Source: a virus (Duplodnaviria > Heunggongvirae > Uroviricota > Caudoviricetes). Taken from it: DNA of 63,545 nucleotides. Below the pieces are notes generated by a model, which searched no databases, was not told the origin of the DNA, and saw only the letters and a program-made list of their open reading frames with translations. This document shows positions 554 to 62,483 of this stretch, piece after piece. A program made the position numbers and the translations under genes. The DNA lies in IMG/VR virus record IMGVR_UViG_3300022555_000017, positions 64,001-127,545 of that record; one strand, 5' to 3'. The first letter of the stretch is position 1; every line of letters begins with the position of its first letter.

Positions 554-904
554 CTAATTTTTTATATTTTTTTCAATCTCATTTTTTATTTTAGCAAACA
601 TATCATTTGCTTCAAAATAATTCATTTTAATTTTTGTTATCAATCGTTCATTAATTTTTATATCACTTAACTCACAACCTTCGCTTAAACAGAAATCAAA
701 CTTATACTTACCGCCATATATAGTTTTTAACTCTTTATTTAAGTCATCTATAATGATTTGAGAATCAATATTATACTTTTCATTAATATAAGATATAATT
801 TCATCATACCTAGTTTTAGTATCAACTAGCTTGATACTTAATGCTCTAAAAATATTTGTGTTCTCATCAAAACCGGAGTATGATAAATAGTTTAGTAATC
901 TCAT
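554..904 (-). CDS. Hypothetical protein, 116 aa
   Basis: ORF is colinear with its neighbours and has AGGA upstream; no recognisable motif. Confidence 0.65.
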   Translation of the reverse strand: MRLLNYLSYSGFDENTNIFRALSIKLVDTKTRYDEIISYINEKYNIDSQIIIDDLNKELKTIYGGKYKFDFCLSEGCELSDIKINERLITKIKMNYFEANDMFAKIKNEIEKNIKN

Positions 905-908
905 TTTA

Positions 909-1580
909 TTATCCTATAAGAGTAATATGCGTATCGTCATCGCTTATCCTGCAATAAATTAAATTATTTCCATCAAGGGATTGTAAATATGTAGTGCAAC
1001 CACCAGATAAAACATCTGTTTCTGTTGTCCAGCTACCATCAATACTAACATATGACGTATATACTGGATAATTGTTATTCAAATTATGCTGAAGTGTGCA
1101 TTTATATATACCATCTTCGTCCAATGTAAGTTTCAATGTTTCAGTTGATATAGTTGAGCCCACTAAAGCCTTATATACACCGGCCTTAGATTCCCACCTA
1201 TATGCCAACTCATTACTAATCATTTTATTTTTTGCTAAATCAGTACCAGAGTTATCTGTTTCATCCACTTCAGCTGATGGAACTATAATATCAACATAAT
1301 CAACCGTTCCTTCATCTATAACACCAGCTTTAGACCATTTTATCTTAAACTTTCCACTTGCATATCCATTTGTTTCAGATGAATCAGCTATCCAAAATTC
1401 AAAATAACCATTCTCATCTGTTGAAATTTGCGGTAATGTATTTGTTGCCGAACCGCCATTTTCTGATGTATATACATATGCGGCAGTTGAAGAATTTGCA
1501 ACATATACTGATATATCAACTCCATTTATAGGTTGCCCTTCTTCATTACTGATATATTCCCAATGATGCGCACGAGCCAT
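909..1580 (-). CDS. Probable virion structural protein (fibre or baseplate associated)
   Basis: Beta-rich N-terminus (ISTDENGYFEFW) and one HNL-type repeat (TLQHNLNNNYP) like those in the upstream gene; GGAGA RBS. Confidence 0.55.
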   Translation of the reverse strand: MARAHHWEYISNEEGQPINGVDISVYVANSSTAAYVYTSENGGSATNTLPQISTDENGYFEFWIADSSETNGYASGKFKIKWSKAGVIDEGTVDYVDIIVPSAEVDETDNSGTDLAKNKMISNELAYRWESKAGVYKALVGSTISTETLKLTLDEDGIYKCTLQHNLNNNYPVYTSYVSIDGSWTTETDVLSGGCTTYLQSLDGNNLIYCRISDDDTHITLIG

Positions 1581-1594
1581 AATGTAATCTCCTT

Positions 1595-7272: not shown

Positions 7273-7293
7273 AGTTATCTTATTTCCTCTATA

Positions 7294-40733: not shown

Positions 40734-41939
40734 TTATTGAGGTAGATTATAACAACGCACATACTGATAGTAAAGGTTACTACCAAAGATGTGTTCATGG
40801 ATTGCGTAACGACTCATCAAACCAACTGTTGGATGGAATGACTGTTCATATATGGTTTTGCTCACCATAAGTTGGACGTAGGGTAAATAAATGATGCCGG
40901 CATCATATTCTGATGGGCCTTTATATCCAACTGTCAAATAATCAACAGCCGCAAATGTATCTCTATATACCTGCAAACGACCATCTAAACTACCCATTTT
41001 TGCGATACCAGATGTAAGAACATTAATATCGTTATTTACTGGCCATACAATAAATGATGAAAGACCTTCAAGTGCTGCACATACATAAGGAGATGCTACA
41101 ACAAAGTTACCAGCGCCTCTGCGTGTATTGACTGCGATTGCATTTGACTTTCTTACAACCATGTTATAAAGTGTACGATATTTCTCTGCCTGCCATCTAC
41201 CATCTGCATCAACAGGACTATCATAATCCCAATCACCAGATACGGCAACTGTATTCATCTTATTAACAATTTCACGGTCAATTTCTGCCGTAATTTCGTA
41301 TGCTAAAATGTCCATCATTTCTTCTTCCAGATCAAGACCGTGCATTGCTTTCAAATCCTGTGCAACTTCCAATGACCAACGGCTTCTCAATTTTCGTGTC
41401 TTTGCTTCTACCTGTGCTTTCTCAACTGTCATATTAACTTCTTTGATAGCTGTTCCTGCGCCAACACCCAAACCAATATCACCTGATATATTAGAACCCA
41501 AAAGTTCTCCAGCTGATGTTACATATGTACCAGTATATGTAGTATCAATTCTGTTGTATCCAGCTTCATCTGTAGGATAGTTAATACCATACTGACCATT
41601 GGCAGGGCCGTCACCAGTATAACTTGTACCTGGCTTAAATCTCAATGCGAATGCCAAACCAACAGGGCCTGTCATAGGCTGAACGCCAACGATGTCGTGG
41701 GCAATAAGTTCAGGGAAGGTACGGCGAACCATCGGAATAGCAATCTGATGGAAATCACCTGATGTAGCATAACCAGCATCTCTATTAAAACCTGTCTGTG
41801 TATAATCTCCACCTTCAGTAAGATACTTGTTTTCATTTTCTAGCATCAAGGCTGTTGCTTTAAGAATCTTCTGACTCTTAATCTTTCCACCCTCATTAAG
41901 AATTTCTCCCCACTTATCTACTAATGCTTTAATATCCAT
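40734..41939 (-). CDS. gp23: Major capsid protein gp23
   Basis: IPMVRRTFPELIAHDIVGVQPMTGPVGLAFALR, VEAKTRKL-x3-WSLEVAQDLKAMHGLD, EITAEIDREI and GYKG-x-SEYDAG. Confidence 0.97.
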   Translation of the reverse strand: MDIKALVDKWGEILNEGGKIKSQKILKATALMLENENKYLTEGGDYTQTGFNRDAGYATSGDFHQIAIPMVRRTFPELIAHDIVGVQPMTGPVGLAFALRFKPGTSYTGDGPANGQYGINYPTDEAGYNRIDTTYTGTYVTSAGELLGSNISGDIGLGVGAGTAIKEVNMTVEKAQVEAKTRKLRSRWSLEVAQDLKAMHGLDLEEEMMDILAYEITAEIDREIVNKMNTVAVSGDWDYDSPVDADGRWQAEKYRTLYNMVVRKSNAIAVNTRRGAGNFVVASPYVCAALEGLSSFIVWPVNNDINVLTSGIAKMGSLDGRLQVYRDTFAAVDYLTVGYKGPSEYDAGIIYLPYVQLMVSKTIYEQSFHPTVGLMSRYAIHEHIFGSNLYYQYVRCYNLPQ

Positions 41940-43291: not shown

Positions 43292-44965
43292 TTATAAAGT
43301 TTTACTGATATTTTCTAATACTTGCCAAATTGTCTTGTAGTATTGAGATTTTGCTTCATTGATGTCTATAATAGGCTCAACAACAATTACAGGAGGATTA
43401 AAATCTCTACCTTCATATACACCTTTAATCCAAGAAGGATGATTAGACGGCTCGCCAACTAAATCCCAAGTAATTAGGCAATAGTCCTCATTTACATAAC
43501 CATCTGATTCGTTTACTGTTCCAAGACCTCTTGAGCTAATACCCAAGTTACCTTCTCTAATCAATGTTTTAGCTATCTGTCCCATAGGTGTATCAATAAC
43601 TTTTGCTTTACCGCAAATGTTATCGCCATCCCAACCCAATGATTCAATCATAATAGCAATTTTATCAAGGTTTATATCAGGTGAATTTCCTGTGAAAAAT
43701 GAAACGCTATTTTCATTTCTAACATAAAAATTATGATTTTGAACCTCTATACAATAAACATAACCATCATATTCTTCCTTTTCTATTTTTAAAAATCTAT
43801 CATCAGTATATATACCATTAGTAGATAAAATCTTTAAAAAATATAAAGGACTTTTATTTTCAGCTTTAATAATTCTATCTGCAAATTTATAATCAACTTT
43901 GCAATATTGAACAGTTTTTCTGGCAGATATACCACATTTAAAAGCAATTTCATGAAAATCATCTATTAATTTTTCTGAAGTAGAAAAAATATCTTTTTTA
44001 CAATCTTCTTTTAAAAATCCTCTGCCATCACCAATACCAAACCAATATATCAACTCTTCAAGATATTTAGGTGACAACTCCTTAATAAAATCAGGAATAT
44101 ATTTATCATAACAAATACCTAAAGGTCTAAGAAAATTAGCTAATCTTCCATCATATAAACTAAAAGTTATTTTTCCATTATGATTATTTTCATGCCATTT
44201 CATTTCAATAGGAAATTCATTTAAAATATTTCTAATTAAATCTGCTTTCGCACCTTCATTTTGTGTTATATGAATGCCATTATTAAATTTCTTTGATACA
44301 TTACCTTCTGCTAACCAAATGCCAAAAAATTTAATAAATGTCAGCATATCTATTTCAATATCAACATTATGTGTAAAATTAGACGGATATACTTTATCTA
44401 AACCTTTAAATAGTATGGTATCAAAATCTTTGCCATACCAAACACCCGTTTTAGGAATATATGATTTTCTAATAAGTCTTGTATCACATTCATCAATTTC
44501 TTTAGATGTTTTAAACATAGACTTATCATTCCTATTAAAAAGAAGATGCCTATGAGTTGGTGTAAAAGACATATCAATTTGCCTTCCTTTAAATCTATAC
44601 ATTAATCCTTTATAAGGAGCTTCTATTTTTTTATTTACTTTATGATATTCAATTTCTTTTGTATTTGGATTGAGAGTTGCAACCACATCATTTATATCAA
44701 CATCCTTAATATATTTCCATCCATTAGAAGTAAGAATTTCATTATCACCAAAAATACATTCAGGGTGCCCAAGTTCTCCCCATAAGCACTTGCCATTAAT
44801 TTTTTCTGTAATTTTATTTAATTCACGATCAAGTATATCTTTTCTATATTTTCGGCCATTACTATTCTGTATTTCAGCAGAACTGAATATACCTTCTATA
44901 AAAAGGTTTCCTGAATCATTTGAGGATACTTGAACATTTCTTGATAGTTCTGTTATAAGTTTCAT
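43292..44965 (-). CDS. gp21: Prohead protease gp21 interrupted by an intein
   Basis: FIEGIF-x2-AE-x2-N-x-NGR-x-Y, GELGHP, TPMG-x-I-x3-L, GISSRGLG and WDLVGEPS. Confidence 0.95.
   Translation of the reverse strand: MKLITELSRNVQVSSNDSGNLFIEGIFSSAEIQNSNGRKYRKDILDRELNKITEKINGKCLWGELGHPECIFGDNEILTSNGWKYIKDVDINDVVATLNPNTKEIEYHKVNKKIEAPYKGLMYRFKGRQIDMSFTPTHRHLLFNRNDKSMFKTSKEIDECDTRLIRKSYIPKTGVWYGKDFDTILFKGLDKVYPSNFTHNVDIEIDMLTFIKFFGIWLAEGNVSKKFNNGIHITQNEGAKADLIRNILNEFPIEMKWHENNHNGKITFSLYDGRLANFLRPLGICYDKYIPDFIKELSPKYLEELIYWFGIGDGRGFLKEDCKKDIFSTSEKLIDDFHEIAFKCGISARKTVQYCKVDYKFADRIIKAENKSPLYFLKILSTNGIYTDDRFLKIEKEEYDGYVYCIEVQNHNFYVRNENSVSFFTGNSPDINLDKIAIMIESLGWDGDNICGKAKVIDTPMGQIAKTLIREGNLGISSRGLGTVNESDGYVNEDYCLITWDLVGEPSNHPSWIKGVYEGRDFNPPVIVVEPIIDINEAKSQYYKTIWQVLENISKTL
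43685..44758 (-). mobile_element. Intein, 358 aa (residues 70-427), with LAGLIDADG-type endonuclease
   Basis: Starts GHPE|CIFGDNEILTSNGW and ends VYCIEVQNHNFYVR...FTGN|S; internal FFGIWLAEG and WFGIGDG blocks; removing it restores a 199-aa gp21. Confidence 0.93.
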
Positions 44966-45600: not shown

Positions 45601-47928
45601 TTATAAGTATTTTTCTAACAATATACCTAATCGTTTCTGTAGTATATCATATATTTTACTATCGTTTTTATTTTCTTCTGGTTTATTTGTCTTTTCGGGC
45701 TTCTTTTTAACTATCTTTTCAGTTCCATCTGGTTTTAAGATAATATCATTGTCATCATCATCACCATTTTTTATAATCATATCTGGTTCTTTATATGATT
45801 TATCTATATCCAAATCTTTTCTTTTACTATTATAACTTGCCGCACCACCTTGAGTTCTCACACCGCTCGGACGCCATATATATTTCCAATGTTTTATTTT
45901 ATTTGTTCCTGTTTTATAATCATCTGTAGAAGTATGATATGCACCATCTTCAAAATGTTGATGATTATGCTCAATAACATCTAACCCATTAGATGTTATT
46001 AATAAATTTGAAAATCCAATCATACACATTAAACAAGCTGGGCCCTTCGTCATTGCAAGTTTAGCATTATCGCTACCTAAAATTTTTATAAGTTCGTCTT
46101 TATCTATATATTTCATCATATCTTCAACTGCTTTTACATCTAAACTATCTATTAATTTTCTTGATTTGGATAAATTACCATTTTTACTTGCAATTATTTC
46201 TTGCGTATCTTGTTTATGTTTTTTTATAAATTCACGAAATGCCTTTATATCTTTAATTGAACTCCCAAAACCACTATTTTTCATAAGTTCTTCATATTTA
46301 GAATCATCATCTATAAAATCATCACCAATACCTAATAAATGACCCGTTTTGCCAGGACTACTAGATAGCATTTTTCTTTTCTTTTCATCTGGATGGTATC
46401 TTTGATATTGAGCAGTTTCGCCAGGAAATCCATAATAGCCAAATTTACCACCAGCTAGACCATATTTTACACTTATTGCTGTAATTCTTTCTACTTTATT
46501 TGAGCCTTTACCTTCAGAAGATATTTTTAATTTATCACCACTAGGAAATGAACCATTTGCAGGTAAATAACATTCTTCCCCGTTAGCTATTTCAGTATCA
46601 TAAAGAGCCATTTCAGCAAACTGTTTCATTACACCATTAGCAATATTTTCATCAAGATTATATAAACTAACTGCAGCATTAGAATATAAATCACCTATTG
46701 CCTTACTAGCCATTTCTGATGGAATATCATAGTCTTTTAATACCTTTTGTAAATCATTTGTAAGATTTTCAAAAGTAGTCACAACTTTAGGGTCTATTTT
46801 TCCAGCGTCAGCTAATCTTCTAGCAGCTTCTGTAGATTTAGTTAAAGCTGTATTTGAATTTATAGAATGTTCTAAATAAGCTTTTGAATTTATACCTTTT
46901 TCATTATCTAAAAGTAATCCATCAGAATCTACAGGCGCATATACACTTTTATATTTTGTTTCAAATGTATCAAATGGTGGTTTATCAAAAAGTTTTGCAA
47001 CTTTTTCATCACTCTGAGAAGTTCTAATAGTATCTCTATCAAGTTCAGGTTTAGCCGTTGCACCTAATATACTAGCAGGATTTTTTTCTGTTTCTTGATA
47101 TGAAAGGTCAACATCGTAATGATTAAAAAGATTTACATAATATTTGGAATATTTTTTTATACCCTTTCTAGTATTATCATGATCATCTTTTGATAATCTA
47201 GCATTATTTACATACAGTTCACCATTTTTATTTGTTTCCAAACCATATTCTAAAACTATTTCCTCAGCTCTTTTAATAGATTCATCTCTAGGAAGATTTG
47301 TTAAATCATCAACATCTTTAAAAAATCTCATATATACATTTTTATTTCTATCTTCCATAACATCATTTGACAGTATTAAATCTGTTGCTTGTTTACTAAC
47401 TTGTGTAATATTAATTTCTCTACCATCTGCTGTTTTTATTACTGATCCAATAGTTTCTTCTGGTTTTTTCTCACCACCTGTTTCTTCTGGTTTTTTCTCA
47501 CCACCTGTTTCTTCTGGTTTTTTCTCACCACCTGTTTCTTCTGGTTTTTTCTCACCACCTGTTTCTTCTGGTTTTTTCTCACCAGTACCCTTAGGCAGTT
47601 CTTCAGTAGAACCACCAGTTTTTGATGCTTTATTTTCAGCATCTATAATTATTGCATCGGCATCTTTAGAAAGTTTTTTAGATATATTATTCCCTAATAT
47701 ATGATTAAACGCACCATGAAAACTTTTAATACTATCATATGATAAAGTAGAAAGTAATGATTTTATAGCACTTAAAATTGCTGATGCTGCCTTAGTCTGC
47801 ACCTCTATATTATCTGGATTAGTTTCAATTATCTGAATTAATTGATGTGCTAACTTTGCACCCTTTTTAACTGAAGGATCACTTAAATCCGCCTTTACTT
47901 CGTTTATTAAATAATCTTTTACTTTCAT
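45601..47928 (-). CDS. Large hypothetical protein, candidate internal head (ejected) protein
   Basis: 775 aa, starts MKVKDYLINE|V; internal GEKKPEETG repeats; lies between portal and core genes. Confidence 0.6.
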   Translation of the reverse strand: MKVKDYLINEVKADLSDPSVKKGAKLAHQLIQIIETNPDNIEVQTKAASAILSAIKSLLSTLSYDSIKSFHGAFNHILGNNISKKLSKDADAIIIDAENKASKTGGSTEELPKGTGEKKPEETGGEKKPEETGGEKKPEETGGEKKPEETGGEKKPEETIGSVIKTADGREINITQVSKQATDLILSNDVMEDRNKNVYMRFFKDVDDLTNLPRDESIKRAEEIVLEYGLETNKNGELYVNNARLSKDDHDNTRKGIKKYSKYYVNLFNHYDVDLSYQETEKNPASILGATAKPELDRDTIRTSQSDEKVAKLFDKPPFDTFETKYKSVYAPVDSDGLLLDNEKGINSKAYLEHSINSNTALTKSTEAARRLADAGKIDPKVVTTFENLTNDLQKVLKDYDIPSEMASKAIGDLYSNAAVSLYNLDENIANGVMKQFAEMALYDTEIANGEECYLPANGSFPSGDKLKISSEGKGSNKVERITAISVKYGLAGGKFGYYGFPGETAQYQRYHPDEKKRKMLSSSPGKTGHLLGIGDDFIDDDSKYEELMKNSGFGSSIKDIKAFREFIKKHKQDTQEIIASKNGNLSKSRKLIDSLDVKAVEDMMKYIDKDELIKILGSDNAKLAMTKGPACLMCMIGFSNLLITSNGLDVIEHNHQHFEDGAYHTSTDDYKTGTNKIKHWKYIWRPSGVRTQGGAASYNSKRKDLDIDKSYKEPDMIIKNGDDDDNDIILKPDGTEKIVKKKPEKTNKPEENKNDSKIYDILQKRLGILLEKYL
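47453..47584. repeat. 27-nt tandem repeat, four full copies plus 24 nt, encoding GEKKPEETG
   Basis: gtttcttctggttttttctcaccacct at 47453, 47480, 47507 and 47534, partial at 47561. Confidence 0.95.
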
Positions 47929-48425
47929 TAGTTTTTCACCATTAAATATAGATTAGTTACCATACCATCAATTTTTGGCCCCAACATAGTAAATCCAAGT
48001 TTCTCAAGTCCTTTAATAGAAAACTTATTATCTATTCTAACTGTTGAAAATACACCACTACCTTTAACCTTATTTAACAATGCAGTATTTAACTGATGCA
48101 TTATTCCTTTACTCTGATGTTCTGGTAATGTATAAGACCAACCCATTTCATATTTATAGTTCTTAGCTTCTTCAGGCGCCATTTCAAAAACAGTTTTGCT
48201 TCTATATGGTTTTTTAATAGCTGAAATGGCAATAACTTCATCATCTTTATAATAAAACCCTAAATAAACACCTTTCCCTTTTAAATCACCTTCAGATGGA
48301 TAGGCTTGATCAGCGTCAATAACCATATCATAAAATATATCTAGCTCATCTTCTGTGCATTCTAATGGCTTCTTTATAACTATACCATTATTATTTTCTT
48401 CATTTAGAAAGGCTTGGTATCTCAT
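47928..48425 (-). CDS. GNAT-family acetyltransferase
   Basis: EMGWSYTLPEHQSKGI (motif A) and N-x2-S-x3-LEKLGF (motif B). Confidence 0.85.
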   Translation of the reverse strand: MRYQAFLNEENNNGIVIKKPLECTEDELDIFYDMVIDADQAYPSEGDLKGKGVYLGFYYKDDEVIAISAIKKPYRSKTVFEMAPEEAKNYKYEMGWSYTLPEHQSKGIMHQLNTALLNKVKGSGVFSTVRIDNKFSIKGLEKLGFTMLGPKIDGMVTNLYLMVKN

Positions 48426-48426
48426 G

Positions 48427-50115
48427 CTACACCGATGGGGGTGGAGGGCCTAAATTAGAATAATCAACTTCTTCTCCTTCACTACCTTCTTGCCCTCCAC
48501 CTTCTTGGCCGCCCATTCCTTCTTCACCACCCATACCGCCGAACTCGTCAACTTCGGGAGCCAAGCCATATTCCTTATCAAGTTCAAATCCCTTTTTGTT
48601 TTCTTCTATATCTTCATCTGTCCATTTCAAGTATTTCTTTATCAAATAATACTTAGAAAACTCTGCATTATTTGAAAGTGCATTATAGTTAGCAAAACTC
48701 TGCTCCAAGAAACCTTGCTCCATCTGCTCATTATAATGTGAAGGTGGCGTCATAGTAATAGTTATATCGTCTATATCTAAATCATATTGTTTCTTTATAC
48801 CTTTAAATTCAAGATGAAGTAAAAATAAATCCCTAAACTCTTTACAGAACATACCTTGCTGTCTTTCTAAAAATTTAGCCCATTTAATTTCATCCCTTGA
48901 AATCTCACCGGATTTTGAACCACCAAACAAAGTTTCACTAGTTGTATTGTTATTTTCATTTGCAACTCTTGAAAGAGGATACTTTAATGCTCTATAAAGT
49001 TTCTTTGCGAAATAATAAATATCATCTAGCTCAGTAAACCCAGCAGCATTACCACCACCAACTGTTTCAATAGATGAACCACGGCCATCGGCACTTACAG
49101 GCAGCCAAAAATTTTCTAAAATAGAAAGTACTTCAGGCTCTTGCGAAAGGCTACCTGTAGTTGGATCATAACTTTGTTTCTTTATATACTTTGATTTAAT
49201 CTTCTCAACAAATTTCAATGCTTTATCTCTAGGCATATTTCCTGTATCAATTTTAAATACAAATCTTTCAGGCGCTCTAACTATACGATAAATAATAACA
49301 GATGTTTCAAGAAGTTTTAACTGATTATATGGCACTCTTGATTTTTCTAAATATCCAAAAATTTCATATTTAGTTCTTCCATAAATGCCATAATTAAAAT
49401 AGCCAATCTGTTCTGGATTAAATACAACTATATCAGGTCTTTTTATAGCCTCATCCTTTGATGATGGCCTTTTAATATTAGTCGATAAATACTGATAAAA
49501 ATTCAAAACTTTTCCCGTTCTTATATCATATTCAAAATCCATAGTTTCAGATGGTAAAACTCTTATATTAACAAGACCCTTTTTTATATTACCTTCTTGA
49601 ATAATTCTTTCATAATAAATACGCCCATCAATTAAAAATCTTCTAAACATATCCCAAATCTTATCATTCATTTGTATTCTGTTATAAAATAACTCATGGA
49701 ACTCTTCATATAAAATTTTCTTTATATTTTTATTCTTTTCTAATTTATCATTTGTAATTTGTAACTGAACACTATCTCCATTATCATTAACCTGCGTTGA
49801 TTCATTTACAGCATCTTCTATAACATCGGCAATTTCAGGAGATTCAGCCATTTTTCTATATTCCATAATTCTTGAGACTTCATCTTCAAATGTTTTATTG
49901 ATAAACCTGTTATAGAATTTATTAAAACCATCAAGACCTGTTGTACCATAGCCATTTATAAGAGCATAAACATCATCAATACCTTCACCAGTTGTTTTCT
50001 GTAACTGCTTCAAAGTAGATGTATCATTACCCTTCTTTTCAAATGCTTTTATGGCTTCATCTAATCGGCCATTTAATTCTCTATCTTTGCCATTAAAAAA
50101 ATCATACCAAGCCAT
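48427..50115 (-). CDS. gp20: Portal protein gp20
   Basis: YRKMA-x2-PEI-x3-IED, IDGRIY, LETSVIIYRIVRAPERFVFKIDTGNMP, ENFWLP and LY-x-AL-x2-P-x-SR. Confidence 0.97.
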   Translation of the reverse strand: MAWYDFFNGKDRELNGRLDEAIKAFEKKGNDTSTLKQLQKTTGEGIDDVYALINGYGTTGLDGFNKFYNRFINKTFEDEVSRIMEYRKMAESPEIADVIEDAVNESTQVNDNGDSVQLQITNDKLEKNKNIKKILYEEFHELFYNRIQMNDKIWDMFRRFLIDGRIYYERIIQEGNIKKGLVNIRVLPSETMDFEYDIRTGKVLNFYQYLSTNIKRPSSKDEAIKRPDIVVFNPEQIGYFNYGIYGRTKYEIFGYLEKSRVPYNQLKLLETSVIIYRIVRAPERFVFKIDTGNMPRDKALKFVEKIKSKYIKKQSYDPTTGSLSQEPEVLSILENFWLPVSADGRGSSIETVGGGNAAGFTELDDIYYFAKKLYRALKYPLSRVANENNNTTSETLFGGSKSGEISRDEIKWAKFLERQQGMFCKEFRDLFLLHLEFKGIKKQYDLDIDDITITMTPPSHYNEQMEQGFLEQSFANYNALSNNAEFSKYYLIKKYLKWTDEDIEENKKGFELDKEYGLAPEVDEFGGMGGEEGMGGQEGGGQEGSEGEEVDYSNLGPPPPSV

Positions 50116-55293: not shown

Positions 55294-58200
55294 TTATATA
55301 CCTAATAATTTTTGTATTCTTGTGATAACCATTTTTATATCTATATTTCTTGTACATTCAAATTTTTTATTATGAGGGCAGAAGTTCCAGTTACCTCTAT
55401 CTAGTGTAACATTTATATCATTCATACATCCATTACATACATCTCTATTTATAATCCTAATACAATCTTTCATTTCAACATATTCTTTTGTACTACCGGA
55501 TATGATTACTACTTTTTTATCTAAACCCCATGCCAACCAAGCAGGGCCAGAACTAACACCTATAAAGAATTCACAATGTATAATGTTATTTATAGTTTCT
55601 TCTATGGACTTATTAGTTTTATCTATTATACTTCTTAACTTTGTACTTTCTTTACTGATTACTATAACTTTATAACCCAAAGAGTTAAGATAGTTTACTA
55701 GAACTTGCCAACCAGCTGAATTATTCCAATACTTCATTTGAAACGTAGAATGCTCTGCTATGCACACATACTTTTCCTTAATAGGCCTTCCAGTATCTAT
55801 TTTAACTATATTTGGTTTAATTTCTTTATAGTCTAATCCCAAATAATCAGATGATACTTGTTGTAATGGTATTGACATCCAGTTATTTTTATTAGAATTA
55901 TAATCATTATCTCTACAACCAACAATATAAGTTGCATAAAAATTAGATAGTGTATCAATTTTTATAAAGTTTAATTCTGGATAGTTATTTTCAAATAAGT
56001 GATTATGGAATGTACCAACATAAACCTTACAATTATGAATTTTTCTAAACTCCTCAACATATGGAAACCAAGCAATTGTATCGCCTAAAGATTTACTATC
56101 TAAAAGAATATATACAGACTTGTTTTCAGGATTAAAAATATATTCTTCAGTTATATTTTCGGTTTTGTTTTTTACTATTATTTTCCAGTTAGTATAGTAT
56201 CTTCTATTACAAGCAATCCAAGTAATACTCTTTATATCTCCACCATGTTTTATATCACCTTCATGTACTATAAGTCCGGTATCATTGTCTATAAATTGAA
56301 CATGATATTCACATTCATTTATACCTGTAATTTCAACTCTAGGTTTATCACTAAAAGTATATTCTATTTTGTTGCTACTTTTTATAAATCCCTTTGAATT
56401 AATTTCTTGCCAATTTTTACATATTATTTTATCATCATAAAACTTAAATGTTGCCTTATAAATTTTATCATCTGTTAAATCTAATATTTTTTTTATATTT
56501 GTTCCCACAATAACTACTTCTAATAAGCCTTCCCTTTCAAATTTTAAATATTTTATATCATCCTTTTTAACAATATCACTACCAGTTGCTACTACAACAT
56601 CATCTTTTATATGTCTAACTATAAATTGATGTTCTTCATCTGACTTAAAGTTACATATAAAAAGTATAGCTTTATCATCATTTGTTTTTGATACTTCTAT
56701 ATTTACATTAAGTTCCTTTTTACCCTGATCTAACATACTTCTCTCAAACAGAATATCCTTTTTTATATTATAAGGGATAATATATGTATTTTTTAAGCAA
56801 TCATTATATTTTAAAAATGTATAGAACCAGTTTTCAAATATATAATCATTAGGTTGATTTAATTTTTCACAGGCATCATCATCAACTTTAACATATTCAG
56901 ACCAATTTCTAATATTATACTTTGAAAATAAATCATTCCAATATTTTAAATCAAAACTTAGGCAATTTGTTATGACACCCTTTTCTTTATCTGGTGGATA
57001 TTTTTGTTCTACATCATATCTAAAACAAACAAGTTTTTTATTTTTATTTCTTTGCATTCCATATACATCTAAATACTTATCCAAATCAACATCTATATCA
57101 TATTCTATAAAATGCCCATATGAATACAGATTTGATAAATATGTAATACCATTTGTCATATTTGTTAAAACTGTTACAGCATGATATTTATTTTCATATT
57201 GAGTAACAATTTTTAACTTTTTAGCAACTGTGAACCATTGATTTAAATTCCAATTTTCACTTAAAGGATTATTTTTGTCATATATTAAATAATCAACACT
57301 ATTTATTATATCTTCAGGTAAAATATAATGAGTTGTAATAGCAATAGGTTTATTATATAACTTTAATTTTGATATTGTATTTCGTAATATATCCAACTTA
57401 AATTCTTCATCGGGATAAGTACTAAGTATAAATACATCATCTGAAAATTTTATATCCCTTTTTGTACATACCAATTTGAAACATTGTTGTGCGTGTGACC
57501 ATATATCTTCAATACTTTCTATATGAAATCCAGCATCATTTACAAAATCTATAATAGAATCTTTAGTAAATCCGGTCTTATGATACTCACCCATATTATG
57601 TTGATTACCAAATATTGTATCCAATGGAAATTCTTCTTTTTCATATTGTAACCAATAATTTACACACCATTCAAAATTTGGAACTTCTAAAATTAATTTA
57701 CCATTATATTTTAATACTCTATACCATTCTTTAAGAATATCTGAAATAAATCTTCTGCCGAAATGCTCTAGTAAATGCGATGAATTTAATACATCAATAC
57801 TACAATCATCACAATTTAAATTAGTCGCATCCATTTGTATATCGCCTAAACCCTCAATTATATCGGCATTTATATATCCATTCAACTTATCTGTACCACA
57901 ACCAATATTTAATTTAATTTCAGGTGGATATAATTTTTGATATAGTTCAGAAATATAACCTTCAGCGGTTTTTATAGCATCTTCCCATTTAAAATTTTCT
58001 TTTATCTTTTCAGCACCTATTAATGCCTTTTCTTTACACTCTTCATAATTTTTATATACATATCTCATAACCCGTTTCAAGTCATCAAAATCCGGTTCAT
58101 CCCATTCGCCTGGTGTATCATCTGACATAAAAACATTTTGCGGCTTTCTATATTCCTTTGTTTTTACTACATGGGAAATCCCCTCCGCAAATTCTAACTG

Positions 58201-59091
58201 AGCACCATGAGAAGAACAAATAGTTGGAATACCGCAAGCAATAGCCTCGCCAAGAGGCAGATGCCAGCCCTCAGCTCTCGAACAACTTAAAAAAACATGG
58301 CCGGCTTTAAGATATTTTACATAATCTTCCCTAGATACAAAACCTATATCTTTAATTCTTTTATCAGTAAATCCATAAAATTTTAATCTTTCTTTTGTTG
58401 TTTTTAAATTATCAACAGCAAATGGATTATCAATAGAAACAATAAGATCAATTGGCTCATCAGATTTAAATTCTTCAAGAAATGCTTTAATCATTTCTGT
58501 TGTATATTTTCTATAATCCCATCGGCCAAAAATAATAAATTTAAATCTGTTATCTTTATATTCATTAGGTTTATCTTCCGATACAATATTAAAAATATCA
58601 AAATCAACACCTTCATGTACTACTCTAATTTTTTCTTCTGGATACCCCTGTTCAATAGTAACCCGTTTTTGCCATTCTGTTGGAACCCATAATTGATCAA
58701 ATTCCAATAATTTATTAAAAAATGGTTCTTTTTGCCTAGTACTCTCCCATACATTATAAGCAATTTTTGGCCCATCATAATTTTCAAAGAAATAATAATG
58801 ATTTGATTCCATTAAAACTATATTTAATAAAGACTTATTATGATCTCTTGTATAAGGAGTACCGATTTTATATGGTTCTCCTATCCATGTTTGTTCAATA
58901 CACATATCTTTTTGTTCTTGTGTTAGATGGGTTAAATTTGGCGTGTGCGCAAAATTTCTTATTCTAGTAGGTATATTTTTATTTAATCTAGTAAAGAAAT
59001 CTCTAGCATGATATGCATACCCTGTATGTGGTATGAAACTTGTATGGCCTAATATAGCATCAAATGTAGTTTTTTGATAATTAGAAAACAT
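55294..59091 (-). CDS. Multidomain glycosylation enzyme: GT-B (GT4-like) + SAM-dependent methyltransferase + uncharacterised GT-like region + Aah/TibC-like O-heptosyltransferase; start probably ATG at 59091
   Basis: FLSCSRAEGWHLPLGEAIACG-x-P (GT4); KLNIGCG...SSHLLEH (methyltransferase); LDSKSLGDTIAWFPYVEEFRK...YVCIAEHST...K-x-WNN...FFIGVSSGPAWLAW...CNGC-x14-C-x7-C (TibC-like). Confidence 0.85.
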   Translation of the reverse strand: MFSNYQKTTFDAILGHTSFIPHTGYAYHARDFFTRLNKNIPTRIRNFAHTPNLTHLTQEQKDMCIEQTWIGEPYKIGTPYTRDHNKSLLNIVLMESNHYYFFENYDGPKIAYNVWESTRQKEPFFNKLLEFDQLWVPTEWQKRVTIEQGYPEEKIRVVHEGVDFDIFNIVSEDKPNEYKDNRFKFIIFGRWDYRKYTTEMIKAFLEEFKSDEPIDLIVSIDNPFAVDNLKTTKERLKFYGFTDKRIKDIGFVSREDYVKYLKAGHVFLSCSRAEGWHLPLGEAIACGIPTICSSHGAQLEFAEGISHVVKTKEYRKPQNVFMSDDTPGEWDEPDFDDLKRVMRYVYKNYEECKEKALIGAEKIKENFKWEDAIKTAEGYISELYQKLYPPEIKLNIGCGTDKLNGYINADIIEGLGDIQMDATNLNCDDCSIDVLNSSHLLEHFGRRFISDILKEWYRVLKYNGKLILEVPNFEWCVNYWLQYEKEEFPLDTIFGNQHNMGEYHKTGFTKDSIIDFVNDAGFHIESIEDIWSHAQQCFKLVCTKRDIKFSDDVFILSTYPDEEFKLDILRNTISKLKLYNKPIAITTHYILPEDIINSVDYLIYDKNNPLSENWNLNQWFTVAKKLKIVTQYENKYHAVTVLTNMTNGITYLSNLYSYGHFIEYDIDVDLDKYLDVYGMQRNKNKKLVCFRYDVEQKYPPDKEKGVITNCLSFDLKYWNDLFSKYNIRNWSEYVKVDDDACEKLNQPNDYIFENWFYTFLKYNDCLKNTYIIPYNIKKDILFERSMLDQGKKELNVNIEVSKTNDDKAILFICNFKSDEEHQFIVRHIKDDVVVATGSDIVKKDDIKYLKFEREGLLEVVIVGTNIKKILDLTDDKIYKATFKFYDDKIICKNWQEINSKGFIKSSNKIEYTFSDKPRVEITGINECEYHVQFIDNDTGLIVHEGDIKHGGDIKSITWIACNRRYYTNWKIIVKNKTENITEEYIFNPENKSVYILLDSKSLGDTIAWFPYVEEFRKIHNCKVYVGTFHNHLFENNYPELNFIKIDTLSNFYATYIVGCRDNDYNSNKNNWMSIPLQQVSSDYLGLDYKEIKPNIVKIDTGRPIKEKYVCIAEHSTFQMKYWNNSAGWQVLVNYLNSLGYKVIVISKESTKLRSIIDKTNKSIEETINNIIHCEFFIGVSSGPAWLAWGLDKKVVIISGSTKEYVEMKDCIRIINRDVCNGCMNDINVTLDRGNWNFCPHNKKFECTRNIDIKMVITRIQKLLGI

Positions 59092-59093
59092 AA

Positions 59094-59135
59094 AATCCTC
59101 CAAACATATTTTATATTATTTATGTTTGGAGGATT
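59094..59135 (-). promoter_or_regulatory. 15-bp perfect hairpin that sequesters the glycosyltransferase RBS, with late-box variant CATAAATA (59124-59117) across the 5' arm and loop
   Basis: Minus strand AATCCTCCAAACATA aataatataaaa TATGTTTGGAGGATT ttATG. Confidence 0.8.
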
Positions 59136-59145
59136 GTTTTGTAAA

Positions 59146-59445
59146 TTAGACCTTTTTATTTAAGTTAAAGAGATTTTTTATTGCGGGATTTTCTTGTATA
59201 ATTGGCCTTATTCGTGTTCGTCCAGCCTCTGTTGCCACACCCTTAAAAACTGTATTAGCATATTCTGTAATCAGTTGCTCTGTTGTTTTTGGCGAAGCAT
59301 TTCTTTCAGCAACTACACTTGCTCTCATATCGACAGGATTATCTCTAATACCTAATCTTCTTAAAATAAATCTACTTTGGCCTGATTTAATCAAAGTTTC
59401 CAATGCTGTTACTTGTTCATCTGTTAATGTGATTGTAATATCCAT
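59146..59445 (-). CDS. Hypothetical protein, 99 aa
   Basis: AGGAGA RBS; colinear with neighbours; no motif recognised. Confidence 0.65.
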   Translation of the reverse strand: MDITITLTDEQVTALETLIKSGQSRFILRRLGIRDNPVDMRASVVAERNASPKTTEQLITEYANTVFKGVATEAGRTRIRPIIQENPAIKNLFNLNKKV

Positions 59446-59468
59446 ATCTATTTCTCCTATATTTTAAT

Positions 59469-62400
59469 TTATAAATCTGGTAATATTTTTACAGGTGACA
59501 TATAATTTTTTGGTGTATATTGAAATGTCAAACAATAATTAGCATTATTACCCCATGCCCATATTGAACCATCTAAACCATTTAAACCGGAAGAATAGTC
59601 CCTACCTGCATATATCTTTGTAAAACTCATACCACCAAGAACTGACGTTGGACTTGAATATGATGTTGTATTTCCAGTTCCTAATTGACCTGAACTATTA
59701 TTACCCCATGCCCACGCAGTACCATCTGAACCTCTAATACCCAAAGAATGGCCACTACCAGCAGCTAATTGTGCCCAACTTATACCACCCTTAACAGATG
59801 TAGGTATTGAAGTATCATAATATGACCCACTAAAAAATCCTGAAGAATATGATGTTAATGTTCCAACATTACCTAATTGCCCATAACTATTGCTACCCCA
59901 TGACCATGCTATACCATTAGAACCACTAATACCTAAAGAATGATAGCCCCCAGCTACTATCTGTTTCCAACTTATACTACCAGTAATAGAAACAGGGCTT
60001 GATACTGAAAGCATTGAGCGATCCGAATCAATTCCCAACTGTCCTAATGTATTATAACCCCATGCCCAACCTGTTCCATCCGAACCTCTAATACCTAATG
60101 TATGATCAGTGCCAAGAACTGTTTCTTTCCAACTTATACCACCAACAACAGAAACAGGACTTGAATATGAAGTTCTTGTATTATTTCCCAAATTTCCCAA
60201 CGAATTATCACCCCATGCCCATGCTGTACCATCTGAACCACGAAGCCCTATACTAGTATCATCATTAGAAGAAACTTGTTTAAAACTTATTCCTCCAAGA
60301 ACAGAAACAGGACTTGAATATGATATTATATTTCCATGACCTAATTGGCCAATATTGTTTCCACCCCATGCCCATGCTGAACCGTCCGAGCCTCTAATAC
60401 CCAAAGAATGGTTAAAATATGGATATGTTCCCGCAACTCTAAGATCGGCACCAATAGCAATCTGCTTCCAACTTATATTTCCTAAAATTAATGTTGGATA
60501 ATATTTACTAGTTATTGTACCATCACCTAACTGTCCAACATTATTAGTTCCCCACATCCATGCTGAACCATCCAAGCCACGAATGCCGCCAATATAATTA
60601 CTAGCACCAAACATATCAGAAAAACTTATAATAGTTGTTACTAAAACCGGACTTGACTGATTTACATATAATGTCATATTATTTTTTTGTGTAGTTTGCT
60701 TATATGTATTATCTCCCCACAACCAAACTTTATTATCATAATATCCTATACCACCAATATTATTATACCCAACTTTCAAATCAGAGAAACTAACACTTCG
60801 TATTATTAAAGTAGGTGATAAACAATTTGTTAAATTACCAGTTCCTAACTGACCATTTGAATTAAGACCCCATGCATAACCAGTATTATTTAAACCATTT
60901 ATTCCTACCGAAGAATAAAAAAATGTATCAATTTGTTTGAAACTTATACCACCTACAACAGAAACAGGGCTTGAATATTGTGTTGTATTATTAGTTCCTA
61001 ACTGCCCATACCCATTATAACCCCATGCCCATGCTGATCCATCTAAACCACGGATACCTAAAGAATAAAAATTACCAGCAGATAATTGCGTAAAACTTAT
61101 ACCACCTACAACTGAAACAGGACTTGAATAACTTGTAGTATTATTAGTTCCTAATTGCCCATTATCATTACCACCCCATGTCCAAGCAGAGCCATCCAAT
61201 CCCTTAATTCCTAGAGAATGATTATAACCAGCCGATATTTGTATAAAACTAATATTACCATGAACTGAAACTGGGCTAGAATATGATGTTGCATTACCCA
61301 TACCTAATTGTCCAATACTATTAATACCCCATGCCCACGCAGTACCATCTAAACCATTAATGCCTAGAGAATGATACATACTAGTTGATAATTGCGACCA
61401 ACTTATATTACTAGCAACTAGAGTTGGACTTGAATATGCTGCACTATCACCTATTCCTAAATAACCTTGACTTCCATATCCCCAGCCAAATCCTATTCCA
61501 TCAGAACCACGAATACCTAAAGTATGAGAAGAATAAGTAGTAATAGAAGAAAAAATAATACCGCCCAAAACTAAAACTGGTGTTGTTTGATTAGTTATTG
61601 TACCATCACCCAACTGTCCGTAATCATTTTGGCCCCATGACCATAATTTACCAAAAGTATCTCTATAAAATACTGTACTATATCCAAGTTCTAAGAAATC
61701 CGTATAATCATTTACATATTCCTGTATATTAATAACTGATGCTTGAGAACCACCAAATAGTCTTGCTGTTGTACCATTTATATTTGTATTTGTACCTACC
61801 TGCTCTCCTATTCTAACTTTAAATGTAATAGTGTTTAATGATCTATTATTATAAACATACATTAAATGAGTCTGTTCCAAACCAGACGCTGAATACTTAT
61901 TTCCTTGCCCTGAACACAATGCATATAAATCGGAATCTTTATATAATGCAGCATTTGTGGAATTTGATGTACCTGAATTAGACACATTCAAATATACTTC
62001 TATCAATAATTTACTATTAGTACTTTTAGGTGTATATATTTTTGTTAAAACTTCAAGTCCCATAGTATTTGTAGGTATATCAACTGTAGTTAAAGCAACA
62101 CTTGTATTCGTATATACTATTGTATTACCACTTTGATGATTAACTAATAGACCAGATGTGCCAGAAGAGCCAGAAGTACCTGAGCTACCTGATGTTTTTG
62201 AACTACCTGATGTACCAGACGATCCAGAAGTACCTGAACTACCTGATGTTCCAGAAGAACCAGCAGAACCAGATGTGCCAGAAGAGCCAGAAGATCTTGA
62301 TAAACCAGACGATCCAGAAGTACCTGAACTACCTGATGTTCCAGAAGAACCTCCACTTGTGCCTGAAATCTTTGAAGAACCAGATGTTCCTGAACTACCC

Positions 62401-62483
62401 GATGTTCCTGAACTACCCGATGTTCCTGAAGTTCCAGAAGAACCAGATGTACCATATAAACCTATTTCTACCCATTCTGCCAT
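59469..62483 (-). CDS. Fibre-like protein: Gly-Ser/Thr collagen-like stalk, beta-sandwich linker and 14 RCC1 repeats
   Basis: GTSGSSGTSG runs over ~100 aa; fourteen W-x-WG-x-(N/G) motifs counted. Confidence 0.8.
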   Translation of the reverse strand: MAEWVEIGLYGTSGSSGTSGTSGSSGTSGSSGTSGSSKISGTSGGSSGTSGSSGTSGSSGLSRSSGSSGTSGSAGSSGTSGSSGTSGSSGTSGSSKTSGSSGTSGSSGTSGLLVNHQSGNTIVYTNTSVALTTVDIPTNTMGLEVLTKIYTPKSTNSKLLIEVYLNVSNSGTSNSTNAALYKDSDLYALCSGQGNKYSASGLEQTHLMYVYNNRSLNTITFKVRIGEQVGTNTNINGTTARLFGGSQASVINIQEYVNDYTDFLELGYSTVFYRDTFGKLWSWGQNDYGQLGDGTITNQTTPVLVLGGIIFSSITTYSSHTLGIRGSDGIGFGWGYGSQGYLGIGDSAAYSSPTLVASNISWSQLSTSMYHSLGINGLDGTAWAWGINSIGQLGMGNATSYSSPVSVHGNISFIQISAGYNHSLGIKGLDGSAWTWGGNDNGQLGTNNTTSYSSPVSVVGGISFTQLSAGNFYSLGIRGLDGSAWAWGYNGYGQLGTNNTTQYSSPVSVVGGISFKQIDTFFYSSVGINGLNNTGYAWGLNSNGQLGTGNLTNCLSPTLIIRSVSFSDLKVGYNNIGGIGYYDNKVWLWGDNTYKQTTQKNNMTLYVNQSSPVLVTTIISFSDMFGASNYIGGIRGLDGSAWMWGTNNVGQLGDGTITSKYYPTLILGNISWKQIAIGADLRVAGTYPYFNHSLGIRGSDGSAWAWGGNNIGQLGHGNIISYSSPVSVLGGISFKQVSSNDDTSIGLRGSDGTAWAWGDNSLGNLGNNTRTSYSSPVSVVGGISWKETVLGTDHTLGIRGSDGTGWAWGYNTLGQLGIDSDRSMLSVSSPVSITGSISWKQIVAGGYHSLGISGSNGIAWSWGSNSYGQLGNVGTLTSYSSGFFSGSYYDTSIPTSVKGGISWAQLAAGSGHSLGIRGSDGTAWAWGNNSSGQLGTGNTTSYSSPTSVLGGMSFTKIYAGRDYSSGLNGLDGSIWAWGNNANYCLTFQYTPKNYMSPVKILPDL
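62150..62455. repeat. Degenerate 9-nt-period repeat encoding G-T-S / G-S-S triplets
   Basis: Repeated cctgaactacctgatgtt / ccagaagaaccagatgt type units; Gly at every third residue in the minus-strand frame. Confidence 0.9.

Follow-up and report, generated by a model that had tools for sequence, protein, structure and literature searches.

Background

The glycosyltransferases TibC and Aah of Escherichia coli and their relatives (bacterial autotransporter heptosyltransferases, BAHT) transfer heptose from ADP-heptose to protein Ser. To our knowledge they have been described in one role only, the modification of autotransporter adhesins, with a link to virulence, and we are aware of phage-encoded virion glycosylation only from a few actinobacteriophages. 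In the collagen-like BclA nap of Bacillus anthracis, rhamnose-anthrose is carried on GPT threonines through other glycosyltransferase families. TibC holds its protein substrate by means of a β-barrel and a four-cysteine (Cys4) finger; its catalytic base is Asp110, Thr226 and Lys230 contact the β-phosphate, Trp305 contacts the sugar, and Arg286 contacts adenine N1, which is the basis of its ADP-sugar specificity, while a β-hairpin thumb with the hydrophobic tip Phe265/Val266 builds the dodecamer (PMC4358343). Multi-domain viral glycosyltransferases are known from the chlorovirus PBCV-1, in which A064R comprises two rhamnosyltransferase domains and a methyltransferase, and A111/114R three glycosyltransferase (GT) domains (PMC9614988, PMC7826918). 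Mimivirus L230 glucosylates hydroxylysine, and this virus encodes collagen-like proteins, L71 and others (PMC9614988). The mycobacteriophages Che8, Rita and others O-glycosylate their own virion proteins with phage GTs, according to the work of Freeman et al. (2023, Cell Host Microbe) as it is cited in PMC11256854.

Here we describe a locus in a window of 63,545 nucleotides (the whole stretch of DNA analysed), which forms part of the viral record IMGVR_UViG_3300022555_000017. An earlier note on this DNA had proposed that a fused enzyme assembles glycans on the stalk of a neighbouring fibre. Comparative genomic evidence suggests that O-glycosylation of the fibre stalk is the best reading of this enzyme, and a probable one, because the pairing of a TibC-like gene with a Gly-Thr/Ser-Ser (GTS) repeat recurs across phages.

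Results

The enzyme gene and its source

The features of the locus are collected in Table 1. The open reading frame (ORF) of the enzyme, at 55294..59103 (-), contains 1269 open codons counted from the TTG at 59103; the likely start is the ATG at 59091, which has a GGAGG 6 nt 5' of it and yields the 1265 aa given in the earlier note. Matches to profiles confirm the GT4 domain, the S-adenosylmethionine (SAM)-dependent methyltransferase and the Aah/TibC-type C-terminus read earlier from the sequence, and leave a middle part, aa 557-905, unassigned. The GT4 domain matches PF00534 (1e-10; 41.9 bits against a cut-off of 26.4), PF13692 (36.3 against 27) and phrog_2170 (8.6e-36), and is 51-59% identical to those of its clade relatives. 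The methyltransferase matches PF08241 (1.1e-6; 29.6 bits against 21.2) as well as phrog_6636, and carries LNIGCGT (aa 397-403) as its Gly-rich motif I. In all clade relatives the gene belongs to the virion module and stands upstream of the gene for the gp20 portal. The source is a freshwater T4-like phage; the sequencing runs in which its DNA occurs are freshwater and lake metagenomes, and there are no RNA runs among those listed as carrying its sequence.

Table 1. Features of the locus (positions in the window)
Feature	Position	Strand	Basis
Gene for four-module enzyme, 1265 aa	55294..59091	(-)	likely start = ATG at 59091
GT4 (GT-B, Glycos_transf_1) domain, aa 5-388	57940..59091	(-)	PF00534, phrog_2170
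Class I SAM-dependent methyltransferase domain, aa 389-556	57436..57939	(-)	PF08241, phrog_6636
Middle domain, aa 557-905: predicted GT-A / nucleotide-diphospho-sugar-transferase fold (~250 aa), then β-sandwich	56389..57435	(-)	AF2 + fold search
TibC/Aah-type (BAHT) protein O-glycosyltransferase domain, aa 906-1269, N-terminal β-barrel + four-Cys finger	55297..56388	(-)	TIGR04414, 4rap
Predicted hairpin, 14 bp; 3' arm includes GGAGG ribosome-binding site (RBS) of enzyme gene, loop includes CATAAATA	59095..59134	(-)	RNA fold
ORF, 99 aa, between fibre and enzyme	59146..59445	(-)	ORF list
Fibre, 1004 aa: collagen-like stalk + RCC1 propellers, candidate substrate	59469..62483	(-)	PF25390, PF00415, phrog_5073
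Proline-free G-[ST]-[ST] collagen-like stretch, aa 11-113	62145..62453	(-)	triplet count

The C-terminal domain is of TibC type

The C-terminal domain matches the equivalog profile TIGR04414 with 266.8 bits against a cut-off of 200, over profile positions 7-373 of 374 (270.5 bits in a genome-wide search), and its PDB sequence match is TibC (4rap, E 9e-45). Its AF2 model (pLDDT 92.4) superimposes on 4rap/4rb4 with a TM-score of 0.87-0.89 over ~383 columns (E 2.6e-36), and on the lipopolysaccharide (LPS) heptosyltransferases WaaC/WaaF (GT9) with only 0.37-0.58 (E ~1e-8). Judged by its modelled fold, the domain is thus TibC-type and not LPS-type GT9. D1008, T1120, K1124 and W1189 are the counterparts of TibC Asp110, Thr226, Lys230 and Trp305, four positions that vary little or not at all in the family. 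When conservation was scored over 147 representatives of the TibC-like family, the position of Asp110 was conserved in 147, Lys230 in 143, Trp305 in 147 and each finger Cys in 146. All four cysteines whose TibC-like spacing had been pointed out before are present, and form a predicted iron site with the spacing C1223-x2-C1226-x15-C1242-x7-C1250 (C339-x2-C342-x15-C358-x11-C370 in TibC).

The counterpart of Arg286 is Thr1170, close to a gap in the TibC alignment, and across the same 147 members this position holds Thr in 74, Arg in 29 and other residues in 44; the position equivalent to Pro300/Ser294 is Ser here. According to the alignment the thumb region is 9 residues shorter than in TibC, the AF2 model shows only a short loop there, and the region is 21 aa long in 80 of the 147. 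Given the shortened thumb and the place of the domain within a fusion of 1265 aa, assembly of the enzyme into a dodecamer like that of TibC is improbable; with the Thr at the Arg286 position, this suggests a mechanism that differs from that of TibC in donor contact and assembly.

Genes for heptose supply were also sought. Neither gmhA nor rfaE domain II was found in this record (127.5 kb; the record is 57% complete), and neither gmhA nor rfaE was present in five near-complete TibC-bearing phage genomes (four at 100% completeness by CheckV, and the complete GenBank record of the cultured Microcystis phage Mel-JY01), two of which contain sub-threshold generic nucleotidyltransferases only; a 'cytidylyltransferase-like' neighbour in Mel-JY01 had no NCBIfam match. 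A supply of ADP-heptose by the phage was therefore rejected for this record and these five genomes. Because Arg286 is replaced by Thr and variable in the family, the thumb that builds the dodecamer is shorter and the search of these records for heptose-pathway genes gave none, the corollary drawn earlier, that use of ADP-heptose would point to a Gram-negative host, is unsupported. Heptose is a possible donor sugar for which we see no indication.

The middle domain has a predicted GT-A fold

The AF2 model of the middle domain, which the earlier note had called uncharacterised, has a pLDDT of 82. A sequence search of the PDB with this domain gave no match, so that its placement comes from fold search only: Foldseek matched LARGE1, EXTL2, COLGALT1 and PBCV-1 A64R, each at ~1e-4, and a VIA comparison of model residues 1-249 gave Z 12-13 and an rmsd of 3-4 Å with 160-200 residues aligned, scores that sugar nucleotidyltransferases equal. 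D669 (of EYDIDVD) and D609 are conserved; in the DxD motif D669 is invariant, and the second Asp varies among distant homologues. The model-based GT-A assignment is new, and the domain is probably a third glycosyltransferase, which may supply a third sugar-transfer step.

The fibre gene and its stalk

The fibre matches PF25390 (6.5e-116), PF00415 in 13 stretches and the tail-fibre family phrog_5073 (5e-15), with at least 12 RCC1 blades after the stalk. The 103 stalk residues comprise 48 Ser, 15 Thr, 32 Gly and no Pro; there are 28 G-[ST]-[ST] triplets, in four in-register runs of 9, 5, 10 and 5. PF01391 (Collagen) scores 21.8 bits on this short and interrupted stalk, under its cut-off of 27.2. 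No other Gly-X-Y runs occur in the 127.5 kb of the record; a second Ser/Thr-rich protein is encoded at 14729-16816 of the window. Pfam and PHROG searches gave no match for the 99-aa ORF. The earlier account of the order, with the enzyme two genes downstream of a protein with ~100 aa of G-S/T-S triplets, holds. Its placement among fibre genes applies to the 1004-aa fibre (tail-fibre PHROGs) and to a 537-aa neighbour, which matches PF21722 and a tail-category PHROG, but not to a 596-aa neighbour, for which Pfam and PHROG searches found nothing.

Promoters and a leader hairpin

The exact sequence TATAAATA is commoner in the window than expected (39 against 23.9 +/- 4.9) and is found before many of its structural genes. 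Before the enzyme and fibre genes no exact T4 late promoter was found, one-mismatch versions only; what precedes the enzyme gene is CATAAATA, inside the loop of a hairpin predicted to sequester the RBS, whose fold (-22 kcal/mol, z -6.5) was equalled in stability by none of 200 shuffles. The late-type switch claimed for the enzyme thus stands as far as the window-wide enrichment goes, but not as an exact late promoter at this gene.

TibC-like genes and GTS repeats occur together

We compared 45 viral contigs picked solely by a GTS/GSS repeat DNA pattern with 47 control viral contigs with a (GPX)5 repeat. A TIGR04414 gene was present in 11 of the former and in none of the latter (Fisher p 2e-4), where the GTS contigs may have habitat and lineage in common. 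Among 50 portal-anchored relatives, whose contigs, being of one clade, are not independent, 12 have both traits, 5 the TibC-like gene only, 1 the repeat only and 32 neither (p 6e-7). Four of the five TibC-only relatives are on contigs shorter than 10 kb, and the other is a 36-kb relative without a repeat on its contig; in the single repeat-only relative the repeat lies at the contig end. The co-occurrence with Ser/Thr-rich fibres that had been proposed as a check is thus strong in both comparisons.

Of the TibC loci, 25 are flanked by 5 kb or more of sequence on either side; 17 of these have a GTS ORF, and the other eight have none within 10 kb. The two genes are no more than 100 bp apart in six loci, where the GTS ORF holds the position that the AIDA-repeat substrate gene, the next-door neighbour in canonical BAHT loci, has beside those enzymes. 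In Mel-JY01 the GTS fibre, a protein of 805 aa, is followed by two genes and then the enzyme, the same order as here. In the literature we found neither a report that connects TibC-like enzymes of phages with collagen-like fibres nor one about Mel-JY01.

At 50% identity and E <= 1e-30 the TibC-like family forms 722 clusters. Its members come from aquatic phages, T4-like and jumbo phages among them, and in most cases share a polypeptide with additional modules for glycan building; partners in other phages are GT4, FkbM or class I methyltransferase, sulfotransferase and GT25 domains. In a tree built with FastTree, the viral domains form the sister clade of the autotransporter-linked enzymes. None of nine loci from bacterial genomes has a GTS ORF, and seven stand-alone gene copies, from five of these nine loci, cluster with the canonical BAHTs.

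Discussion

On the reading that we favour, a cytoplasmic enzyme, expressed late in infection, would assemble glycans in this freshwater T4-like phage. The TibC-type domain, an inverting GT-B enzyme with Asp1008 as its putative catalytic base and an apparently intact substrate-gripping β-barrel and Cys4 finger, would transfer the first sugar onto hydroxyl groups of Ser and Thr in the stalk of the RCC1-propeller fibre, that is, in its (G-T/S-S)n repeats without proline. Extension of the glycan would then fall to the GT4 and predicted GT-A-fold modules, and the SAM methyltransferase would cap it by O-methylation. The sugar coat may lend rigidity, stability or protection to a collagen-like stalk without proline. 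The assembly line put forward in the earlier note gains from the co-occurrence, the TibC-type fold and the predicted GT-A module; its ADP-heptose/Gram-negative part is unsupported, and the late-type switch is not an exact late promoter.

Other targets have to be weighed. The enzyme might glycosylate other virion proteins (capsid, tail, decoration, the RCC1 propeller or the protein encoded at 14729-16816), with the GTS fibre merely a frequent neighbour; mycobacteriophages glycosylate capsid and tail-tube proteins, as far as the citation of Freeman et al. (2023) in PMC11256854 goes, the second Ser/Thr-rich protein may be an alternative or additional acceptor, and some TibC loci have no GTS ORF nearby. 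We nevertheless regard this as unlikely, given that the gene and the repeat follow each other in presence and absence within the clade, that the two abut in six loci and that TibC is enriched on contigs picked by the GTS pattern alone.

That host envelope glycans (LPS core, O-antigen or capsule) are remodelled in infection, blocking superinfection or aiding release, seems quite improbable to us: the domain is TibC-type throughout, with the β-barrel and Cys4 finger by which TibC holds a protein (PMC4358343), the gene stands beside fibres in the virion module of every relative, and a link to GTS repeats is not predicted, even though the synthesis of LPS and polysaccharides typically involves GT9, GT4 and methyltransferase domains and LPS heptosyltransferases are the next-best structural matches of the TibC-like domain. 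Hypermodification of phage DNA with sugars, as on 5hmC, has precedents in phage GT-A/GT-B enzymes that put hexose, HexNAc, heptose or Kdo on 5hmC DNA (bioRxiv 10.1101/2023.12.21.572611), and T4-like phages are the classic DNA glucosylators. For the present enzyme it is very hard to credit: PF12851, PF00145 and PF00303 (Tet/JBP dioxygenase, C5-methyltransferase and ThyA-like (thymidylate-synthase-like) hydroxymethylase) are absent from the 127.5 kb of this 57% complete record, for which a DNA-modification context was accordingly rejected, the gene lies outside any nucleotide-metabolism cluster, and DNA activity is not known for the TibC family.

Glycosylation of the stalk, if true, would give a structurally understood enzyme a new acceptor class in Gly-Ser/Thr collagen-like fibres, would explain the stability of proline-free collagen-like stalks, and would make surface glycans a hidden layer in phage adsorption, stability and immune recognition. 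Since Mel-JY01 is in culture and has the same arrangement, the idea is open to a direct test. A bolder proposal, which we advance tentatively and consider doubtful as a whole, is that a large phage-specific BAHT branch has a new class of substrate and O-glycosylates proline-free Gly-Ser/Thr-Ser collagen-like triple helices, with sugars taking the role of hydroxyproline, that the correct folding or the stiffness of widespread phage fibres depends on such dedicated phage enzymes, and that the E. coli autotransporter heptosyltransferases are a minor bacterial side branch within a family that is chiefly viral.

Comparison with known systems

The mycobacteriophage systems, as far as the cited account describes them, differ in their Actinobacteria hosts, in their acceptors (the C-termini of capsid and tail-tube proteins) and in their unrelated stand-alone GTs, and have neither a BAHT domain nor a collagen-like acceptor. 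Mimivirus L230 and BclA resemble the present case in that collagen-like Gly-X-Y proteins exposed on virions or spores receive their sugars from enzymes dedicated to this task, but involve neither a TibC-type enzyme nor proline-free GTS/GSS triplets. PBCV-1 A064R is likewise a viral multi-domain GT-GT-methyltransferase, which makes glycans on a structural protein of the virus itself and caps them with methyl groups, and the fold search with the middle domain matched, among others, the GT-A domain of A64R; PBCV-1, however, is a eukaryotic algal virus with N-linked capsid glycans and no TibC-type priming domain, and no sequence relationship between its enzymes and the phage enzyme is detectable. 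The closest systems are TibC-TibA and Aah-AIDA-I of E. coli (BAHT; TIGR04414; PDB 4RAP/4RB4; PMC4358343), with which the phage domain shares full-length homology at 30-34% identity, the β-barrel and GT-B fold (TM 0.89), the conserved catalytic Asp, Thr/Lys, Trp and Cys4 finger, and a gene beside that of a repetitive Ser-rich surface protein. Unlike the stand-alone TibC (~406 aa), it forms the end of a polypeptide that begins with GT4, methyltransferase and predicted GT-A modules, its thumb is 9 residues shorter and the adenine-contacting Arg286 is a Thr; its neighbour is a proline-free collagen-like RCC1 fibre rather than an AIDA-repeat β-helix autotransporter, and the viral domains fall into a clade separate from TibC and Aah.

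Domain structure of the enzyme

The C-terminal domain of the enzyme, a 1265-aa fusion protein, matches the NCBIfam equivalog for autotransporter O-heptosyltransferases (TIGR04414) over essentially its full length with 266.8 bits (cut-off 200), and its sole match among solved structures is TibC (E 9e-45). The earlier note had claimed Aah/TibC-type motifs and four iron-finger-like Cys in this domain, and all the residues that we mapped, at positions taken from the structure paper on TibC (PMC4358343), are found in the phage enzyme: the catalytic base Asp110 (D1008), the beta-phosphate contacts Thr226 and Lys230 (T1120 and K1124), the sugar contact Trp305 (W1189), and Cys339, 342, 358 and 370 of the iron finger (C1223, 1226, 1242 and 1250). 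An AlphaFold model of the domain (32 homologues, pLDDT 92.4) superposes on TibC, N-terminal beta-barrel included, with TM 0.87-0.89, but on the LPS heptosyltransferases WaaF and WaaC with just 0.37-0.58; therefore, the domain is TibC-type, and a generic GT9 identity was rejected. The beta-hairpin thumb, which builds the TibC dodecamer (PMC4358343), is 9 residues shorter in the phage enzyme.

Family searches divide the enzyme into four parts, i.e. a GT4 glycosyltransferase at the N-terminus (PF00534, 41.9 bits, cut-off 26.4; phrog_2170, 8.6e-36), a class I SAM methyltransferase (PF08241, 29.6 bits, cut-off 21.2; motif I, LNIGCGT), a middle part without a family match, and the TIGR04414 domain. 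This agrees with the domains previously proposed, except that the middle part, then uncharacterised, can now be given a GT-A fold. In a structure model of aa 550-910 (15 homologues, pLDDT 82), model residues 1-249 form a nucleotide-diphospho-sugar-transferase (GT-A) fold, which is followed by a beta-sandwich. Foldseek matched the model at ~1e-4 to LARGE1, EXTL2, Kre2, the collagen galactosyltransferase COLGALT1 and the PBCV-1 capsid glycosyltransferase A64R, and a Foldseek-independent search (Z 12-13) returned a tie between GT-A glycosyltransferases and sugar nucleotidyltransferases. YD..NN is conserved and one Asp of EYDIDVD invariant, which is GT-A-compatible; not every homologue keeps the second DxD Asp. 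Judging from the model, the middle domain is probably a third glycosyltransferase, the alternative being a sugar-activating enzyme.

The gene, its fibre neighbour and the genome

The enzyme ORF (55294..59103, minus strand) has 1269 open codons counted from a TTG, and the ATG at 59091, 6 nt past a GGAGG, gives the 1265 aa claimed before. This ribosome-binding site is sequestered by a perfect 14-bp hairpin (-22 kcal/mol, z -6.5) with CATAAATA in its loop, which hints at gating of translation or a start specific to the transcript. The late-type switch proposed for this region stands in part: exact TATAAATA motifs are commoner than expected (39 vs 23.9 +/- 4.9) and many structural genes have one in front, but it is absent ahead of both the enzyme gene and the fibre gene.

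The Ser/Thr collagen-like fibre was correctly placed two genes upstream of the enzyme, with a 99-aa ORF in between. Residues 11-113 of this 1004-aa protein contain 48 Ser, 15 Thr, 32 Gly and no Pro, and 28 G-[ST]-[ST] triplets were counted, with four in-register runs of 9, 5, 10 and 5; this stalk is the sole Gly-X-Y run in the 127.5 kb of the record searched. Tail-fibre PHROGs match the protein over its first 227 residues, and at least 12 RCC1 blades (PF25390, 6.5e-116) follow the stalk. Since two baseplate wedge proteins also carry RCC1 propellers, this phage has no fewer than four virion genes with such blades.

In the IMG/VR record, 127.5 kb long and 57% complete by CheckV, the window takes up the second half; GC content is ~30%. 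The genes of the window all lie on the minus strand and belong to a divergent T4-like myovirus, whose structural module they form. The capsid protein of this phage is just 36-37% identical to its closest cultured counterparts, those of T4-like phages of Pelagibacter, Prochlorococcus and Sinorhizobium. Metagenome runs that contain DNA of the enzyme gene (55294-59103) came from freshwater and lakes, in three studies.

Features of the window and of related contigs
Feature	Coordinates	Strand	Remark
gp6-like baseplate wedge protein	4516-7272	-	RCC1-propeller fusion; paralogue of the next
gp6-like baseplate wedge protein	7294-10218	-	RCC1-propeller fusion
Ser/Thr-repeat protein, 695 aa	14729-16816	-	
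gp23 capsid protein	40734-41939	-	structural module
gp21 prohead protease	43292-44965	-	structural module; gene split by intein with LAGLIDADG domain
GNAT acetyltransferase	47928-48425	-	immediately downstream of portal gene, within head module
gp20 portal	48427-50115	-	structural module
Enzyme	55294-59091	-	
Hairpin at ribosome-binding site	59095-59134	-	
Fibre	59469..62483	-	
gp22 scaffold		-	structural module
Tail sheath		-	structural module
Large terminase		-	structural module
Baseplate hub		-	structural module
Mel-JY01, collagen-like ORF	635-3052	+	805 aa
L205, enzyme homologue	1017-6281	+	1754 aa
L255, split enzyme	6728-9364	+	contig 3300033143_004581

A distinct branch of the TibC family

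The TibC-like domain was found in 1416 cluster representatives at E <= 1e-3 (722 at E <= 1e-30), mostly within proteins of 500-2000 aa; its partners in phages are GT4, FkbM or class I methyltransferases, sulfotransferase and GT25. In a FastTree phylogeny of 88 such domains, one clade (SH 100) holds the canonical bacterial autotransporter heptosyltransferases (BAHTs) and seven stand-alone bacterial genes, and the other every viral sequence and three MAG contigs; the phage enzymes are thus a branch of their own within a known family. Relatives of this phage keep the complete GT4-MT-GT-A-TibC fusion just upstream of the portal gene. On one relative's contig (L205) the homologue has an additional N-terminal methyltransferase and a LAGLIDADG intein within its GT4 domain (aa 483-819). 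On another (L255) two separate genes encode the enzyme; the TibC-bearing half opens with a sulfotransferase domain (PF03567, 2.7e-12), a hint that the glycans of some phages are sulfated.

Co-occurrence of the TibC-like gene and the repeat

A degenerate DNA pattern for (GTS-GSS)n was the sole criterion in choosing viral contigs, whose full records were then searched with TIGR04414; the domain was found (E <= 1e-10) in 11 of 45, ten of them over the curated cut-off, vs none of 47 controls chosen by a (GPX)5 collagen pattern (Fisher p 2e-4); for contigs of at least 30 kb the counts were 10/25 and 0/21. Among 50 contigs with homologues of this phage's portal, 17 have the TibC-like domain and 13 the repeat: 12 have both, five TibC only (four on contigs <10 kb), one the repeat only (at a contig end) and 32 neither, one of these being a 236-kb record with 98% completeness. 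As these contigs are related, the Fisher p of 6e-7 is an upper bound on the true significance. Anchoring on TibC, an ORF with GTS/GSS-type triplets was present at 25 of 58 non-identical loci, and at 17 of the 25 loci flanked on either side by 5 kb or more. In six loci the two genes are <100 bp apart, the phage ORF occupying the place that the AIDA-repeat substrate gene holds beside canonical plasmid BAHTs.

The sole cultured phage with a close enzyme homologue (1227 aa, GT4 and TibC at opposite ends) is Microcystis phage Mel-JY01. Two genes upstream of this fusion lies an ORF with ~450 aa of G-[ST]-x collagen-like triplets. What the GenBank record (PP395634) annotates here is a P/V/E-rich ORF on the opposite strand (739-2298) and, of the plus-strand gene, just its final 534 nt; the record thus lacks the fibre, which hides the pairing.

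Acceptor, donor and known systems

On these sequence comparisons, the enzyme probably glycosylates the fibre stalk, as the earlier note had proposed. That interpretation is thus supported in part: the comparative evidence is strong, the heptose corollary unsupported. Glycosylation of virion proteins other than the stalk is unlikely, one candidate acceptor being the 695-aa protein with tandem STSTPASTSSIGKSA-type Ser/Thr-rich repeats around aa 526, which had no match in a PHROG search and is possibly a second O-glycosylation acceptor. Remodelling of host envelope glycans is rather improbable, for it predicts neither the link with the GTS repeat nor the retention of TibC's protein-gripping elements. 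Phages do hypermodify DNA with sugars, heptose among them (bioRxiv 10.1101/2023.12.21.572611), yet the enzyme gene is located among virion genes and the 57%-complete record is without a hydroxymethylase, Tet/JBP dioxygenase or C5-methyltransferase, which makes a DNA substrate very improbable.

As for the donor, TibC Arg286 contacts adenine N1, which explains ADP specificity (PMC4358343); the phage enzyme has Thr there, and the position is variable across 147 family representatives (T 74, R 29). Searches for gmhA and rfaE genes found none in this record, nor in the genomes of five phages with a TibC-like gene (the complete Mel-JY01 record and four that CheckV rates as 100% complete). Nothing in the analysis indicates ADP-heptose as the specific donor, so the Gram-negative host deduced from it is unsupported.

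Our literature search found no paper tying phage TibC-like enzymes to collagen-like fibres. Known analogues are TibC/Aah (PMC4358343), with whose Aah member the phage enzyme shares a Ser at the stereoselectivity position, the multi-domain chlorovirus enzymes A064R and A111/114R and mimivirus L230 (PMC9614988, PMC7826918), and the virion glycosylation of mycobacteriophages (Freeman et al. 2023, as cited in PMC11256854).
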